Shown piece by piece: positions 3,026 through 52,575 of a DNA stretch of 64,000 bases. Positions within the stretch are counted from its first letter, which is position 1, and each line of letters opens with the position of its first letter. The translations under genes and the position numbers were made by a program. The stretch is from contig CAZQUL010000001.1 of assembly GCA_964596525.1 (NCBI GenBank), forward strand, positions 76,830-140,829. The letters run 5' to 3'. This DNA is from an uncultured Gammaproteobacteria bacterium (lineage in GTDB: Bacteria; Patescibacteriota; Patescibacteriia; Magasanikbacterales; GWA2-37-8). The notes beneath the pieces are model-generated. The model worked only from the letters and a program-made list of their open reading frames with translations, searched no databases and had not been told where the DNA came from.

Positions 3026-3163
3026 CACCTATCGTTTCGATATGTTTTAAACCGCTTTCCCGTGCGGAATTTTTTAATAGATTAACACGGTCTAAAAATT
3101 TTTAATTTTAAAAGGCCTGTGCAATGGTGACGCAGAGGCCTTGGGTATTTCTGGAATTACGGA

Positions 3164-8169: not shown

Positions 8170-8787
8170 ATGAGTACGAGAGTGCGGCAACAGGCCTTAC
8201 TGATAACCCAAGCCGGTGTTATAACGCTCGCGATTATTTCGGGCTGCGGATACGCCCATCAAGCATACAAGATCTTCAGCAAAAAAAGCGCGCAAAGTTT
8301 ATCCGGCTATCTCTTTATTGCCGTAACCTTCGTTTTTATAGCAGGCGCGCTTTACGGAGCGCAGCTGGGCAAAAAAGTGATGCTCCTTAGCAACGGATTG
8401 CGTGCACCACTTGCTGCGGCCGTAGTTGGGGGTATTGCCTATTACGGCGGGCTTTCCCCCGGCGAATGGATTGCAGTCGCCAGTGTAGTCGGCGCTGGTA
8501 TACTTGCGTATACCAAACCGGCTTGGAGCGGATGGATGTGCGTTGGGAGTGCAGTCATCGGCCTGGCTGGCGTGACGCGCCAGATTTATGAAATGATCGC
8601 CCAAGGCCACCCCGGCGTCATATCGTTACCACTCCTCGGCACCCAGCTTGTCAACGCGATATTCTGGACTACATATCTTGCTCTGTACCTCGAAAAACCC
8701 TGTTTCGCCGATCGCGTTCTGACCTGGTGCTGCGGCACGAACATTATCCTGACCGGTATCTTGATGGTGCTATGGGCGCGGTTCTGA
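8170..8787 (+). CDS. polytopic membrane protein, unknown function
   Basis: AAAGGAGG RBS. Six or more hydrophobic helices. Confidence 0.6.
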   Translation: MSTRVRQQALLITQAGVITLAIISGCGYAHQAYKIFSKKSAQSLSGYLFIAVTFVFIAGALYGAQLGKKVMLLSNGLRAPLAAAVVGGIAYYGGLSPGEWIAVASVVGAGILAYTKPAWSGWMCVGSAVIGLAGVTRQIYEMIAQGHPGVISLPLLGTQLVNAIFWTTYLALYLEKPCFADRVLTWCCGTNIILTGILMVLWARF

Positions 8788-11743: not shown

Positions 11744-11764
11744 GGGCAAGAATTCACTCAATCA

Positions 11765-11846
11765 GGCAGGGTGGCGATGGTGGTAAGAGCACGGGATTCA
11801 TAACCCGCACCCACAGGACGAGAAGTTCGATTCTCTCCCGAGAGGA
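11765..11846 (+). pseudogene. degenerate tRNA-Met(CAT)-like copy, probable tRNA pseudogene
   Basis: Shares GGCAGGGT..GGTAAGAGCACGGGATTCATAACCC and GTTCGATTCTCTCCC with the downstream tRNA-Met. Acceptor, D and anticodon stems do not pair, and there is an 8-nt insertion in the variable region. Confidence 0.4.
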
Positions 11847-11862
11847 ATTTCATACAATACTA

Positions 11863-11936
11863 GGCAGGGTAGCTCAGTTGGTAAGAGCACGGGATTCATA
11901 ACCCCGAGGTCGAGAGTTCGATTCTCTCCCCTGTCA
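11863..11936 (+). tRNA. tRNA-Met (anticodon CAT; could also be tRNA-Ile2/lysidine type)
   Basis: GGCAGGGTAGCTCAGTTGGTAAGAGCACGGGATTCATAACCCCGAGGTCGAGAGTTCGATTCTCTCCCCTGTCA. Cloverleaf folds cleanly with a TTCGATT T-loop. 74 nt. Confidence 0.85.
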
Positions 11937-11967
11937 CAAAAATTCACCACATCCGAACCCGTTTCGT

Positions 11968-12732: not shown

Positions 12733-12782
12733 GTCGATTTTCAGAGATACTAATCCGTGATACAAAATAAAGATATTACGCG

Positions 12783-12924
12783 TCATTGTAAGGAGGGACG
12801 ACGAAGCAATCTCCTTGATAGTAGAGTGGCCTCTGAATTACGGAGGGATTGCCCGCCCGGCACGCCTTTGCTGCCGTGGCGGACGGGCTCTTCGTCAGTC
12901 ATGTAACTCCTTCCTCGCAATGAC
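12783..12924. mobile_element. MITE-like repeat, copy A (142 bp)
   Basis: Terminal inverted repeats GTCATTGTAAGG / CCTCGCAATGAC. Internal segments shared with the copies at 41036 and 51289. Intergenic between the EEP gene and tsaD. Confidence 0.6.
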
Positions 12925-12953
12925 GGTATAAATATGTTTTCTAAATCTCTCCT

Positions 12954-40508: not shown

Positions 40509-40940
40509 TTACTCAACGGGTTCGAGGTAGAAGCGCTCCTCTTCGGCATCTTCATCCGCCTCTTCATCCGCCTCTTCAAAGAGGGTGGAATCCCAAGCTT
40601 CTTCGGTAGGGCGTTTCGGTGGGGCAGGAGGTTCGGGGCGGCGAGGCGCTACCGGCTTGCGCGGCGGAGCGAACATCTCTTGTCCGTCCCAGGACAATTC
40701 GCTGTCGACATCATCGTCTGAAGACTCCTCGTTTTCTTCGGCATCTTCGTCGGCGCATTCTTCTTTACCATCGCACGGGCAGGAAGCGCATTTCCCGCCG
40801 GACGAACCAGCAGCGAGGCGTTCGTAATCATCGATCTTCATGAGCACAAAGAGCGTATCGGAGTCGGTATCGGGGATAATGATACGATCATTAGTGCGTT
40901 TGACCAACTCCAGAAGGCGCGCGAGATGGGAAAAATTCAT
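40509..40940 (-). CDS. acidic hypothetical protein with CxSCPCDGKEEC motif
   Basis: 143 aa, Asp/Glu-rich C-terminal half with a short GAGGCGGATGAA tandem repeat. Immediately upstream of tuf. Confidence 0.5.
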   Translation of the reverse strand: MNFSHLARLLELVKRTNDRIIIPDTDSDTLFVLMKIDDYERLAAGSSGGKCASCPCDGKEECADEDAEENEESSDDDVDSELSWDGQEMFAPPRKPVAPRRPEPPAPPKRPTEEAWDSTLFEEADEEADEDAEEERFYLEPVE

Positions 40941-41035
40941 ACTCGGACGAATTTAAGATGAGTATGGCGGTACCGTACGGAGTTTGAGGGCGTTTGTCAA
41001 TATGGTGGAACGGCGGAAAAACCATTCACCCTTCT

Positions 41036-41143
41036 GTCATTGCGAGGAAGGAGTTAGACGAGTGACGAAGCAATCCCCCAGTAATTTCAGAGCTCGCTCT
41101 GTTATCAAGGGGATTGCTTCGTCGGGTGCCTCCTCGCAATGAC
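41036..41143. mobile_element. MITE-like repeat, copy B (108 bp)
   Basis: Perfect 12-bp terminal inverted repeats GTCATTGCGAGG / CCTCGCAATGAC plus a nested 15-bp inverted repeat GACGAAGCAATCCCC / GGGGATTGCTTCGTC. Directly abuts the stop of the Nudix gene. Confidence 0.65.
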
Positions 41144-41154
41144 GCGATTTAATC

Positions 41155-51162: not shown

Positions 51163-51288
51163 AGGAAGAGAGCGATACAGAACGTTTATCTATAACTATA
51201 CACAAGAAGGAGCGATTCGGATACAGACCACAACGGCATGACTGTGGAAAGGCTGAGGGCTTTTGCTTTCCAGCACAGACATGCAACC

Positions 51289-51419
51289 GTCATTGCGAGC
51301 GATAGCGAAGCAATCCCTTAGCAACTCGGAATTTGCTCTGTTATCAAGGGGATTGCCCGCCCGGCACGCCTTCTGCTGCCATGGCGGACGGGCTTCGTTG
51401 CTACGCACCTCGCAATGAC
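51289..51419. mobile_element. MITE-like repeat, copy C (131 bp)
   Basis: TIRs GTCATTGCGAGC / CCTCGCAATGAC. Shares GCTCTGTTATCAAGGGGATTGC with copy B and GCCCGCCCGGCACGCC..GGCGGACGGGC with copy A. Confidence 0.6.
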
Positions 51420-51424
51420 AAAAC

Positions 51425-52129
51425 TTACACAGGAACTTCTATCGCCAACACATCACTTAACTCACGTGCACGCAACACCCATTCACCGCCTCCCGACACA
51501 CCCAGGCCATCACGCCGATGTAGTTCTTGATTATCGAACTCAACACCACCTTCGATAAGGAAAAAATATACACCATGGCGCGCATCACGGAGCGTATAGG
51601 CAAGATCCGCACCCGACGCGATGCGAGCACGGCTTATATACGCCTCTTGATGGATCCAGAGTTTACCCGCTACCGGGCCAGGCACAACAAGTTCTTGCCA
51701 GGCATTTGAAACGTCGGAAGAAAATGTTTTCTGATCGTAGCGCGGTGCAACGCCTGCACGGGCGGTTTCTATCCAAAGTTGCAGAAGCTCAACCGGCTCT
51801 CGCGCATCGGAATTTTCTTCGCTATGGCGCACGCCGGTGCCCGCGCTCATCACCTGCACATCACCGGCGGTAAGGAGCCCGGTGTTGCCCATACTATCTT
51901 TATGCTGGAGCGCTCCCTGGAGCATGACGGTCACGATTTCCATGTTTTCATGCCGATGCATCCCGAAACCGCTTTCGGGTGCGATCGTATCGTCGTTTAA
52001 GACGCGTAATACCCCGAAGTTCATACGTTCGGGGTTGAAGTAATCGGCGAAGCTGAAGGTGTGATACGTGGAGAGCCAGCCATGATCGGCATGGCCGCGC
52101 GTTTTTGCACGATGAATAAGGATAGGCAT
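51425..52129 (-). CDS. pirin-family cupin protein
   Basis: HRHENMEIVTVMLQGAL and GTGVRHSEEN motifs. Confidence 0.85.
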   Translation of the reverse strand: MPILIHRAKTRGHADHGWLSTYHTFSFADYFNPERMNFGVLRVLNDDTIAPESGFGMHRHENMEIVTVMLQGALQHKDSMGNTGLLTAGDVQVMSAGTGVRHSEENSDAREPVELLQLWIETARAGVAPRYDQKTFSSDVSNAWQELVVPGPVAGKLWIHQEAYISRARIASGADLAYTLRDARHGVYFFLIEGGVEFDNQELHRRDGLGVSGGGEWVLRARELSDVLAIEVPV

Positions 52130-52155
52130 GCGAATTGTTCGATTAAACGTTAAGG

Positions 52156-52575
52156 TCACGCGGGGATCGAATTAAAAAATCGTTCGAATATCTCTTTCAG
52201 ATCTTCAAGCGCACGGTACTGCTCGACCACCAAGTTCTTGTTCCCGGCAACCATGGCCGAGAGGCGCTTTCCTTCTTGCTCCCGGTAGAGGCAGAGCACC
52301 GGTTTTACTCCTTCGGCCCGACCGAGTTCGTAGCCTACGCCGAGACTCGGTTGCGTCACTTCAGCCACGACGACGTCCGCGCTCATAAGCCATTCCATGT
52401 CACGTGCATAAATTGATTGGTCGGATGGTCCGTCTTCACCGCGGATAGATAACGCCTTGTCGCCAATGTGTTCGGTAAAGACGGTACCGTACGTTTTGAG
52501 AAGTTCGATGATAGACAGGTAGAGCCCCTGGTCAGAGCGGCCGCCGCGAATGGAACCGGCGAAGTAGATCTGCAT
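52156..52575 (-). CDS. 2'-deoxynucleoside 5'-phosphate N-hydrolase (DNPH1/Rcl-like)
   Basis: MQIYFAGSIRGGRSDQGLY N-terminal motif and a conserved Glu-containing C-terminus. Confidence 0.75.
   Translation of the reverse strand: MQIYFAGSIRGGRSDQGLYLSIIELLKTYGTVFTEHIGDKALSIRGEDGPSDQSIYARDMEWLMSADVVVAEVTQPSLGVGYELGRAEGVKPVLCLYREQEGKRLSAMVAGNKNLVVEQYRALEDLKEIFERFFNSIPA

Follow-up and report, generated by a model that had tools for sequence, protein, structure and literature searches.

Palindromic intergenic repeats of a Patescibacteria-like genome as probable dimers of a CGTC-tagged, nuclease-linked repeat unit

What is the palindromic element that recurs between genes at three places in a 64,000-nucleotide (nt) stretch of a Patescibacteria-like genome (contig CAZQUL010000001.1, the whole stretch being referred to here as the window), and how might its copies have spread? 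The three copies, A (12781–12925), B (41035–41144), and C (51288–51420), whose coordinates include a conserved flanking pyrimidine (Y), had been noted in a preliminary description as a three-copy repeat, and all three elements are present. The loci are interpreted here, with a probability of about 80%, as dimers without an open reading frame (ORF) of the ATTGC subtype of the CGTC-tagged repetitive extragenic palindromes (REPs), that is, of the recognition motifs (SRMs) of the Ssn single-strand nucleases, arranged with their tags outside (“HH” dimers) and presumably spread by an Ssn-dependent route.

The preliminary description presented the repeat as a family that it did not recognize, although it had anticipated a possible match to a known REP family, and such a match was found, given that the elements fit both the CGTC-tagged REPs (Di Nocera, De Gregorio and Rocco 2013, BMC Genomics 14:522; PMC3733652) and the SRMs (Chenal et al. 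2025, Nat Commun 16:2388; PMC11893778). The CGTC REPs are characterized by a CGTC or TGTC tag, a stem that starts with AT, and a C-rich tail, and include the Neisseria dRS3 and the Rickettsia palindromic elements RPE-4 (= CGTC-4) and RPE-6 (= CGTC-1) (PMC3733652). The Neisseria dRS3/NTS and some of the Rickettsia palindromic elements (RPEs) belong to the same superfamily as the ATTGC subtype. The repeat of the window is not a new class, but a copy-poor and somewhat degenerate set of a well-documented pan-bacterial repeat.

A short unit dispersed across many phyla

Each of the elements is composed of two inverted copies of a single unit, with the tags outermost and a spacer of 32–34 nt between them. 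The unit, which is 29–80 nt long, has the form YGTC-ATTGCGAG-(variable interior)-GAAGCAAT-C, in which an unpaired 5' tag (YGTC) is followed by a short stem (ATTGC...GCAAT) that encloses a GA-rich interior of variable length, and by a C-tail at the 3' end. What looks like a terminal inverted repeat is formed by the conserved 5' portions of two smaller units in inverted orientation. The stem starts with AT and has 5 bp in all the units of the window, while the interiors, of 7–59 nt, measure 7–20 nt except in the second units of copies A and C (A2, 59 nt, and C2, 50 nt), which are enlarged by a nested GC-rich hairpin. Of the tag variants of the CGTC REPs and SRMs (CGTC, TGTC, and CCTC), four of the six units have CGTC and the other two TGTC. 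The described families have a cytosine immediately 3' of the palindrome (tail CCA or CYRG), and in each of the six units a C or a T comes after AATC, the consensus of the family being AATC-Y-M-G.

The same anatomy is found in other genomes, and an nhmmer profile of 464 distinct units from these genomes recovered precisely the six half-units of the three elements from the window, with no further match. In the units of other genomes (214 and 247 units), a C or a T occupies position -1 in 91–95% and position +1 after AATC in 93–98%, and no conserved flank was found beyond position -1 in 461 such units. The ATTGC...GCAAT stem co-varies with the ATTCC...GGAAT and ATTAC...GTAAT subtypes, with stem dinucleotides of GC/GC in 211 cases, CC/GG in 16, and AC/GT in two. 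In the window itself, the exact 12-mer of the arm occurs four times in 64 kb, against approximately 0.008 occurrences expected, which means that its recurrence is not a product of chance.

A genome scan, based on one genome per species and the pattern GTCATTGCGAG-N(3-33)-GAAGCAATC, recovered at least 120 loci, and those listed belong to the Alpha- and Gammaproteobacteria (including many Bradyrhizobium and sphingomonads), Chloroflexota, Patescibacteria, Bacteroidota, Cyanobacteria, Planctomycetota, Zixibacteria, Desulfobacterota, Sporomusa, and Helicobacter rodentium, among others. The unit is present in more than a dozen phyla. In the scanned loci, it forms tags-outside pairs (mostly of 70–90 bp), tags-inside pairs, singletons, and direct tandem arrays, and these four arrangements indicate an organization of the type of the REPs and bacterial interspersed mosaic elements (BIMEs), rather than a transposon with terminal inverted repeats (TIRs). 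The preliminary description had offered a choice between a miniature transposable element with inverted repeats (MITE) and a REP/BIME-like repeat, and it is the second of these that agrees with the unit arrangements and with the match to the CGTC REPs, while the TIR-bounded MITE is abandoned. A direct tandem array is found in the metagenome-assembled genome of a Chloroflexus (L009, 1290–1956), where the unit and its downstream spacer are repeated head-to-tail with a period of approximately 50 nt, which is an unusual type of amplification, and a single reverse unit stands at the end.

Predicted viral contigs also bear the unit, and homologous sequences with and without the element exist in other DNA, including the interior of apparent coding regions. 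Tags-outside dimers lie within apparent coding regions of predicted viral contigs at 3135–3222 of L218 and 622–709 of L314 (compared with L305, L220, and L276), and at 8782–8982 of L272 (compared with L215, L269, and L250). The viral homologues without the dimer have a short, unrelated linker in its place, and this polymorphism of presence and absence recalls the in-gene palindromic elements of Rickettsia.

The GIY-YIG nuclease gene between inverted units

In a locus of the Planctomycetota (L068), the spacer of one dimer is filled by an ORF of 96 amino acids (aa) with a GIY-YIG domain (PF01541, E 6e-18). The homologues of this protein form at least 7,999 clusters, with lengths of approximately 95–99 aa and approximately 70% identity to the query, and their contigs, many of which are shorter than 2 kb, are named by their sources as Deltaproteobacteria, Chloroflexi, Anaerolineales, and Marinimicrobia. 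In 80 metagenomic loci with relatives of the L068 protein, examined for the motif GTCATTGCGAG with up to one mismatch, the motif lies within 250 nt of the nuclease gene in 79 cases and on both sides of it in 63, and an exact bracket of forward unit, gene, and reverse unit is found in 42, with median distances of 56.5 nt from the tag to the ATG and 34 nt from the stop codon to the outer end. The density of the motif falls from 7.9 per kb in the vicinity of the gene to 0.36 per kb at greater distances on these contigs, against a chance expectation of 0.016 per kb. The preliminary description had suggested looking for a full-length, autonomous partner encoding a transposase, and the only longer elements recovered with these termini encode a GIY-YIG nuclease, and not a DDE transposase.

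The nuclease is homologous to SsnA of Neisseria. Used as a tblastn query against PLSDB, the L068 protein matched two chromosomes of N. gonorrhoeae (mislabelled entries), the locus of which encodes a 94-aa protein with Y6, Y17, and E64, the SsnA residues mutated by Chenal et al. (2025; PMC11893778), and has copies of the NTS immediately downstream and further upstream. The L068 protein is 44% identical to the gonococcal SsnA over 89 ungapped residues (E 2e-26), and this homology, together with the length and the matching Y/Y/E spacing, suggests that proteins of the L068 type belong to cd10448. Searches of the PDB and NCBIfam for the Ssn nuclease returned no Ssn-specific match, but a weak one to the UPF0213 structure 1zg2 and a sub-threshold intron-endonuclease model. 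In the plasmid pNL2 of Novosphingobium aromaticivorans (L204), an annotated GIY-YIG nuclease gene is bracketed, at 1400–1450 and 1800–1835, by another motif of the CGTC type (CGTCGCCCCGTGCTTGACACGGGGC...), a distinct bracket which points to the pairing of the Ssn subfamilies with distinct motif subtypes.

In 71% of its homologues, ssnA, the gene of a 94-aa GIY-YIG protein (cd10448), is flanked by the NTS of Neisseria (CGTCATTCCCGCGMAVGCGGGAATCYRG) and related SRMs (PMC11893778). SsnA binds the motif as single-stranded DNA (ssDNA) only, and on one strand, cuts a few nucleotides upstream, and does not bind RNA; the GTC before the palindrome governs cutting, the C after the palindrome governs binding, and the enzyme reduces transformation by DNA bearing the NTS (PMC11893778). 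The ssDNA-only binding and cleavage, and the restriction of transforming DNA, have been demonstrated for the enzymes of Neisseria (three species) and Wolbachia only (PMC11893778). The NTS-ssnA-NTS arrangement resembles an insertion sequence (IS), although its mobility was hypothesized only (Chenal et al. 2025), and a search of the literature returned no later paper on the Ssn/SRM system. A full-text search for the arm sequences recovered unrelated primer matches only.

In the mechanism considered most likely, the unit would fold when the DNA becomes single-stranded, as in incoming transforming or conjugative DNA, or in the intermediates of replication or repair, and a single-domain GIY-YIG nuclease of approximately 95 aa, of the Ssn family (cd10448), would bind the folded unit sequence-specifically, and introduce a nick immediately beyond the element, at a distance of a few nucleotides on the 5' side of the tag. 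The ATTGC subtype would be cut by an Ssn of its own, which the host presumably encodes, and the copies would have spread by an Ssn-dependent route. The short dimers would then relate to the unit-nuclease-unit cassette as the REPINs, or inverted REP pairs, relate to the gene of the REP-associated tyrosine transposase (RAYT), or as the MITEs relate to the IS, and they are considered to be akin to derivatives of the cassette because the cognate nuclease gene of other genomes sits between inverted units. Structure-specific nucleases of the Slx1 or YhbQ type, acting on cruciforms, were also considered, and were dropped because Ssn cutting is specific to ssDNA and to sequence.

The interpretation of the loci as dimers of an Ssn-recognized repeat must be weighed against a number of observations. 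The evidence of cleavage by an Ssn-type enzyme covers subtypes other than ATTGC, no Ssn homologue is encoded within the 64-kb window, and the 80 loci represent one tight subfamily, picked by its similarity to a protein derived from a repeat locus. The stems described for the CGTC REPs have 8–9 bp, with loops of 4–5 nt, unlike the 5-bp stem and the interiors of 7–59 nt found in the window. In a nearest-neighbour model, single ATTGC units fold with approximately -2.7 kcal/mol and a z-score near 0, against -8.9 kcal/mol and a z-score of -3.9 for the NTS, and the recognition of the ATTGC units may differ from that of the canonical hairpin. The first unit of copy A (A1) has two substitutions in the conserved ATTGCGAG box, and the nested 38-nt hairpin in A2 and C2 might abolish recognition. 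The published SRM pattern, HGTCWYN(0-2)YYVSBRHN(0-5)WNVSBRGN(0-2)RNCYNB, which matches the canonical NTS, has no match in the window, nor to units of the ATTGC type, which it misses because their stem differs and their interior is expanded; the pattern is a search heuristic, and not a biological definition. In view of the differences in pattern, folding, and interior length, the repeat is classed as a subtype of the superfamily, whose hairpin it matches only in part.

What makes the unit-ssn-unit cassette of real interest is the possibility of its being a transposon driven by a GIY-YIG nuclease. It is tentatively proposed that the cassette may be an autonomous mobile element with the GIY-YIG single-strand nuclease as its “transposase”, and that the dimers of the window may be MITE-like elements derived from it, which would be spreading by horizontal transfer through more than a dozen phyla, the small-genome Patescibacteria among them, a possibility that is judged less likely than not. 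The precise bracketing of 42 of the 80 genes is compatible with this proposal, as are the identity of approximately 70% among proteins on contigs source-named to different phyla, the filled and empty homologous sites, and the predicted position of the cuts exactly at the outer boundaries of the elements. Against it, an inverted pair has one unit per strand in the cleavable orientation, which means that a single-strand excision like that of IS200/IS605 is not obviously workable.

The three copies in the window and the rival explanations

Perfect inverted termini of 12 bp, which had been ascribed to the family, are found only in copy B. The left arm of copy A (GTCATTGTAAGG) has two substitutions, rather than the single one recorded previously, that of copy C (GTCATTGCGAGC) has one, and the start of copy A, formerly given as 12783, is corrected to 12782 (12781 with the flanking base). 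The earlier account also missed the inversion of copy A relative to copies B and C, across the loop and both units. The sharing of modules between pairs of copies, by contrast, was borne out, with GCTCTGTTATCAAGGGGATTGC present in B and C only, and a GC hairpin of 38–39 nt in A and C only (37/39 identity). The potential to form hairpins was likewise confirmed, given that the elements folded as ssDNA score z-values of -4.7 to -8.5 against shuffled sequences.

In copy A, the degenerate unit A1 (12781–12813, plus strand) reads CGTCATTGTAAGG-AGGGACGAC-GAAGCAATC-TC, with the head CGTC and the tail C (nhmmer E 0.001), and is followed by a 32-nt loop (12814–12845), which matches the B-type loop in reverse complement (25/34 identical), and by the 80-nt unit A2 (12846–12925, minus strand), which reads CGTCATTGCGAGG-GAAGGAGTTACATGACTGAC-GAAG-(GC hairpin)-GCAATCC and has an interior 17/20 identical to that of unit B1. 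The nested GC-rich hairpin of 38 nt, GCCCGCCCGGCACGCC...GGCGGACGGGC, lies at 12851–12888, between the GAAG and GCAAT of this unit. Copy B comprises unit B1 (41035–41076, plus strand; TGTCATTGCGAGG-GAAGGAGTTAGACGAGTGAC-GAAGCAATCC; nhmmer E 2.9e-9), a loop of 34 nt (41077–41110) that includes a small AGAGC-TCG-CTCT hairpin, and unit B2 (41111–41144, minus strand; CGTCATTGCGAGG-AGGCACCCGAC-GAAGCAATCC; nhmmer E 6.9e-9). The first unit of copy C (C1; 51288–51316, plus strand; CGTCATTGCGAG-CGATAGC-GAAGCAATCC; nhmmer E 9.5e-9) is the shortest, and the nearest to the modal form of the family, and its fold has the ATTGC/GCAAT stem paired and the head and tail unpaired. It is followed by a loop of 33 nt (51317–51349), 25/34 identical to that of copy B, and by unit C2 (51350–51420, minus strand), which reads TGTCATTGCGAGG-TGCGTAGCAAC-GAAG-(GC hairpin)-GCAATCC, with a nested hairpin of 39 nt (51355–51393), which is placed and oriented in the unit like that of A2, and is 37/39 identical to it.

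Copies A and B share the loop, the interior of one unit, and the second unit, B and C share the loop, and this pairwise sharing of modules suggests that the three copies are related by copying together with recombination or loop inversion. The GC hairpin, which is present in none of approximately 320 loci fetched from other genomes, sits in opposite units of A and C relative to the loop, which implies either that the loop was inverted when the arms recombined, or that a tiny palindrome was inserted site-specifically on two independent occasions. Segmental duplication is ruled out by the unrelated flanks of the three copies. The short-read contigs of the same strain break off within copies A and C, a behaviour to be expected of dispersed repeats.

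The intergenic location reported in the preliminary description holds for all three copies, each of which lies between co-directional genes. Copy A lies 48 nt past the stop codon of an Exo_endo_phos gene and 28 nt (or 8 nt) ahead of tsaD, copy B lies 10 nt past the stop codon of NrtR, with an ORF of 143 aa as the next gene, and copy C is 4 nt past the stop codon of a pirin gene, with an ORF of 185 aa as its other neighbour. The distance from the stop codon is thus 4–48 nt. Among the named relatives of TsaD, the nearest are from Patescibacteria (Magasanikbacteria and others), and no unit was found upstream of tsaD in the relatives with 77–81% identical TsaD, in which the order of the genes differs. 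A clean empty site was obtained for none of the window copies, the exact NrtR protein is not on record, and the pirin has no relative with more than 57% identity.

In a relative (L205, with a 77% identical TsaD), an 88-aa GIY-YIG ORF of a different subfamily (2426–2692) comes immediately behind a tRNA gene and ahead of a duplicate of the 3' half of the tRNA. No SRM units were found around this ORF, which looks like a tRNA-targeting insertion of the homing type, at the position held in the window by the Exo_endo_phos gene and copy A. The window itself contains a tRNA-Met gene (11863–11937) with a degenerate second copy approximately 100 nt upstream (11764–11836), the first 43 nt of which are 88% identical, and which was not called by ARAGORN. 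The 143-aa ORF downstream of copy B (40509–40940, minus strand) contains a repeat with a 12-nt period (TCTTCATCCGCC-like; region 40540–40580), with two overlapping 29-nt copies at 40540 and 40552, and has no match in Pfam. The nearest named relatives of the pirin gene beside copy C (51425–52159) are Bacteroidota, and this gene was probably acquired horizontally by the Patescibacteria-like genome. A 25-nt box with TTGACA (CTTGACAAAAACGCTATTTTCGGGC-like) is found at 550–574, 1059–1083, and 1650–1674, with spacings of 509 and 591 nt, and may represent a repeated promoter or operator ahead of a small gene family.

The inverted termini, the size of 108–143 bp, the intergenic location, and the number of copies would also be expected of a classical MITE, that is, a deletion derivative of an IS with TIRs of 11–12 bp, mobilized in trans by a DDE transposase through cut-and-paste. 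This origin is very improbable, however, given that target-site duplications are absent from all three copies, as the preliminary description had observed (the flanks are CGC/GGT, TCT/GCG, and ACC/AAA), that the supposed TIR is part of an independent unit, also found as a singleton, in tags-inward pairs, and in direct tandem arrays, and that the only gene recurrent between the arms is that of the GIY-YIG nuclease. In addition, the few associations of CGTC repeats with transposase genes are considered fortuitous (PMC3733652). The mobilization of a REPIN by a RAYT, which is a Y1/HUH transposase, follows the same logic of inverted pairs of small palindromes, which also occur as singletons and clusters, and downstream of genes. 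Here, however, the tag is CGTC, rather than GTAG or GTGG, and the flanked gene is that of a GIY-YIG nuclease, while RAYT genes are never flanked by CGTC repeats (PMC3733652), although the fetched loci were not themselves searched for RAYTs. A RAYT is thus hardly a credible agent.

A role at the RNA level, in which co-transcribed hairpins in the 3' untranslated or intercistronic regions stabilize, process, or attenuate the mRNAs, and the nuclease link is irrelevant in the host, would account for the position of all three copies shortly after stop codons, between co-directional genes, for the high stability of the hairpins, and for the single orientation of the three loops relative to transcription, which has a chance of 1 in 4, and such a role has been proposed for REPs in general. 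This account is nevertheless improbable, since no Rfam family was matched (the structured-RNA check found two tRNAs only at gathering thresholds, and a permissive search with copy B returned generic hairpins far below these thresholds), neither a U-tract nor a site resembling a terminator is present, RNA is not bound by the Ssn enzymes (PMC11893778), and the element is missing upstream of tsaD in the relatives with 77–81% identical TsaD. The sequence of the arm itself is conserved across phyla, moreover, and not a pairing kept by covariation, which points to the recognition of the sequence by a protein. An intrinsic terminator was discounted, since the hairpin is not followed by a T-run. Even so, co-transcription of the hairpins may well have an incidental influence on the mRNAs next to them. 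Decay offers a further explanation, by which the units would be relics of past activity or horizontal transfer in a host without a working Ssn, and the copies would matter only as repeats that recombine or break assemblies. The mutated box of A1, the interruption of A2 and C2 by the nested hairpin, the presence of only three dimers in 64 kb, with no ssn gene in the window, and the lack of an SsnA homologue in 19% of the genomes with more than 200 SRMs (PMC11893778) are all in keeping with this explanation, which is judged unlikely in view of the intact head, box, and tail of five of the six units, and of the 37/39 identity of the nested module, which suggests fairly recent copying.

Significance and comparison with known systems

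The interpretation as Ssn-recognized dimers has a number of consequences. The published SRM pattern fails to recover the ATTGC subtype, which is apparently of great abundance across phyla, so that the published counts of SRMs, and the reach of the Ssn system, are probably underestimates. Since this subtype brackets one Ssn subfamily almost universally, a new, ready-made pair of enzyme and site is predicted for ssDNA cleavage tools, and, if true, a cassette driven by a GIY-YIG nuclease would be a mechanistically new class of prokaryotic transposon. Patescibacteria are thought to depend on DNA uptake, and the unit in a Patescibacteria-like genome raises the question of whether an Ssn/SRM system modulates the integration of incoming DNA there. 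In practice, the dimers break short-read assemblies and generate spurious small ORFs.

The elements of the window share their small size, inverted termini, hairpin potential, and intergenic location with classical MITEs, such as Correia and Nezha, but have neither a target-site duplication nor a DDE partner, and are built from a unit that works as a monomer. The Rickettsia palindromic elements, which belong to the same superfamily, include in-frame copies in coding regions, as do the viral contigs, whereas the copies of the window are all intergenic, and the sequence subtype and the host differ. The REPIN-RAYT system (Nunvar 2010; Bertels and Rainey 2011) provides a parallel in the inverted pair of small palindromic units that forms a long hairpin, in the presumed recognition of ssDNA, and in the non-autonomous copies, which far outnumber the unit-flanked gene, although the tag is GTAG or GTGG rather than CGTC, and the Y1 HUH transposase and the GIY-YIG nuclease are unrelated protein families.

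The CGTC REPs occur mainly as HH dimers with spacers of 20–100 bp, downstream of ORFs, between unidirectional genes, and occasionally inside genes (PMC3733652), and the three HH dimers of the window, with spacers of 32–34 nt and a position close behind stop codons, follow the same plan, as do their units, with an unpaired CGTC or TGTC tag at one end, an AT-starting stem, and a short C-rich tail. The hosts also overlap with those of the pattern-scan matches (Bradyrhizobium, sphingomonads, Micavibrio). The ATTGC subtype is likened to the families CGTC-1 to CGTC-4 as a group, on the basis of their description in the text. The published families differ in being recorded from five phyla, with no dedicated enzyme, and it was stated that they “apparently lack a dedicated transposase” (PMC3733652).

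The NTS and other SRMs differ from the ATTGC subtype in the stem, which is ATTCCCGC in the NTS, while the interior of the ATTGC unit is expanded, and its single units fold weakly; around the gene, the motifs are inverted in 42 of the 80 loci, unlike the NTS copies up- and downstream in the gonococcal locus, which are direct. The two systems nevertheless have in common the head CGTCAT and the tail AATC-Y-R/M-G, found in the window units as in the NTS, a distribution across many phyla, and the bracketing by the motif of the gene of a single-domain GIY-YIG nuclease of approximately 95 aa, related to the SsnA of Neisseria.

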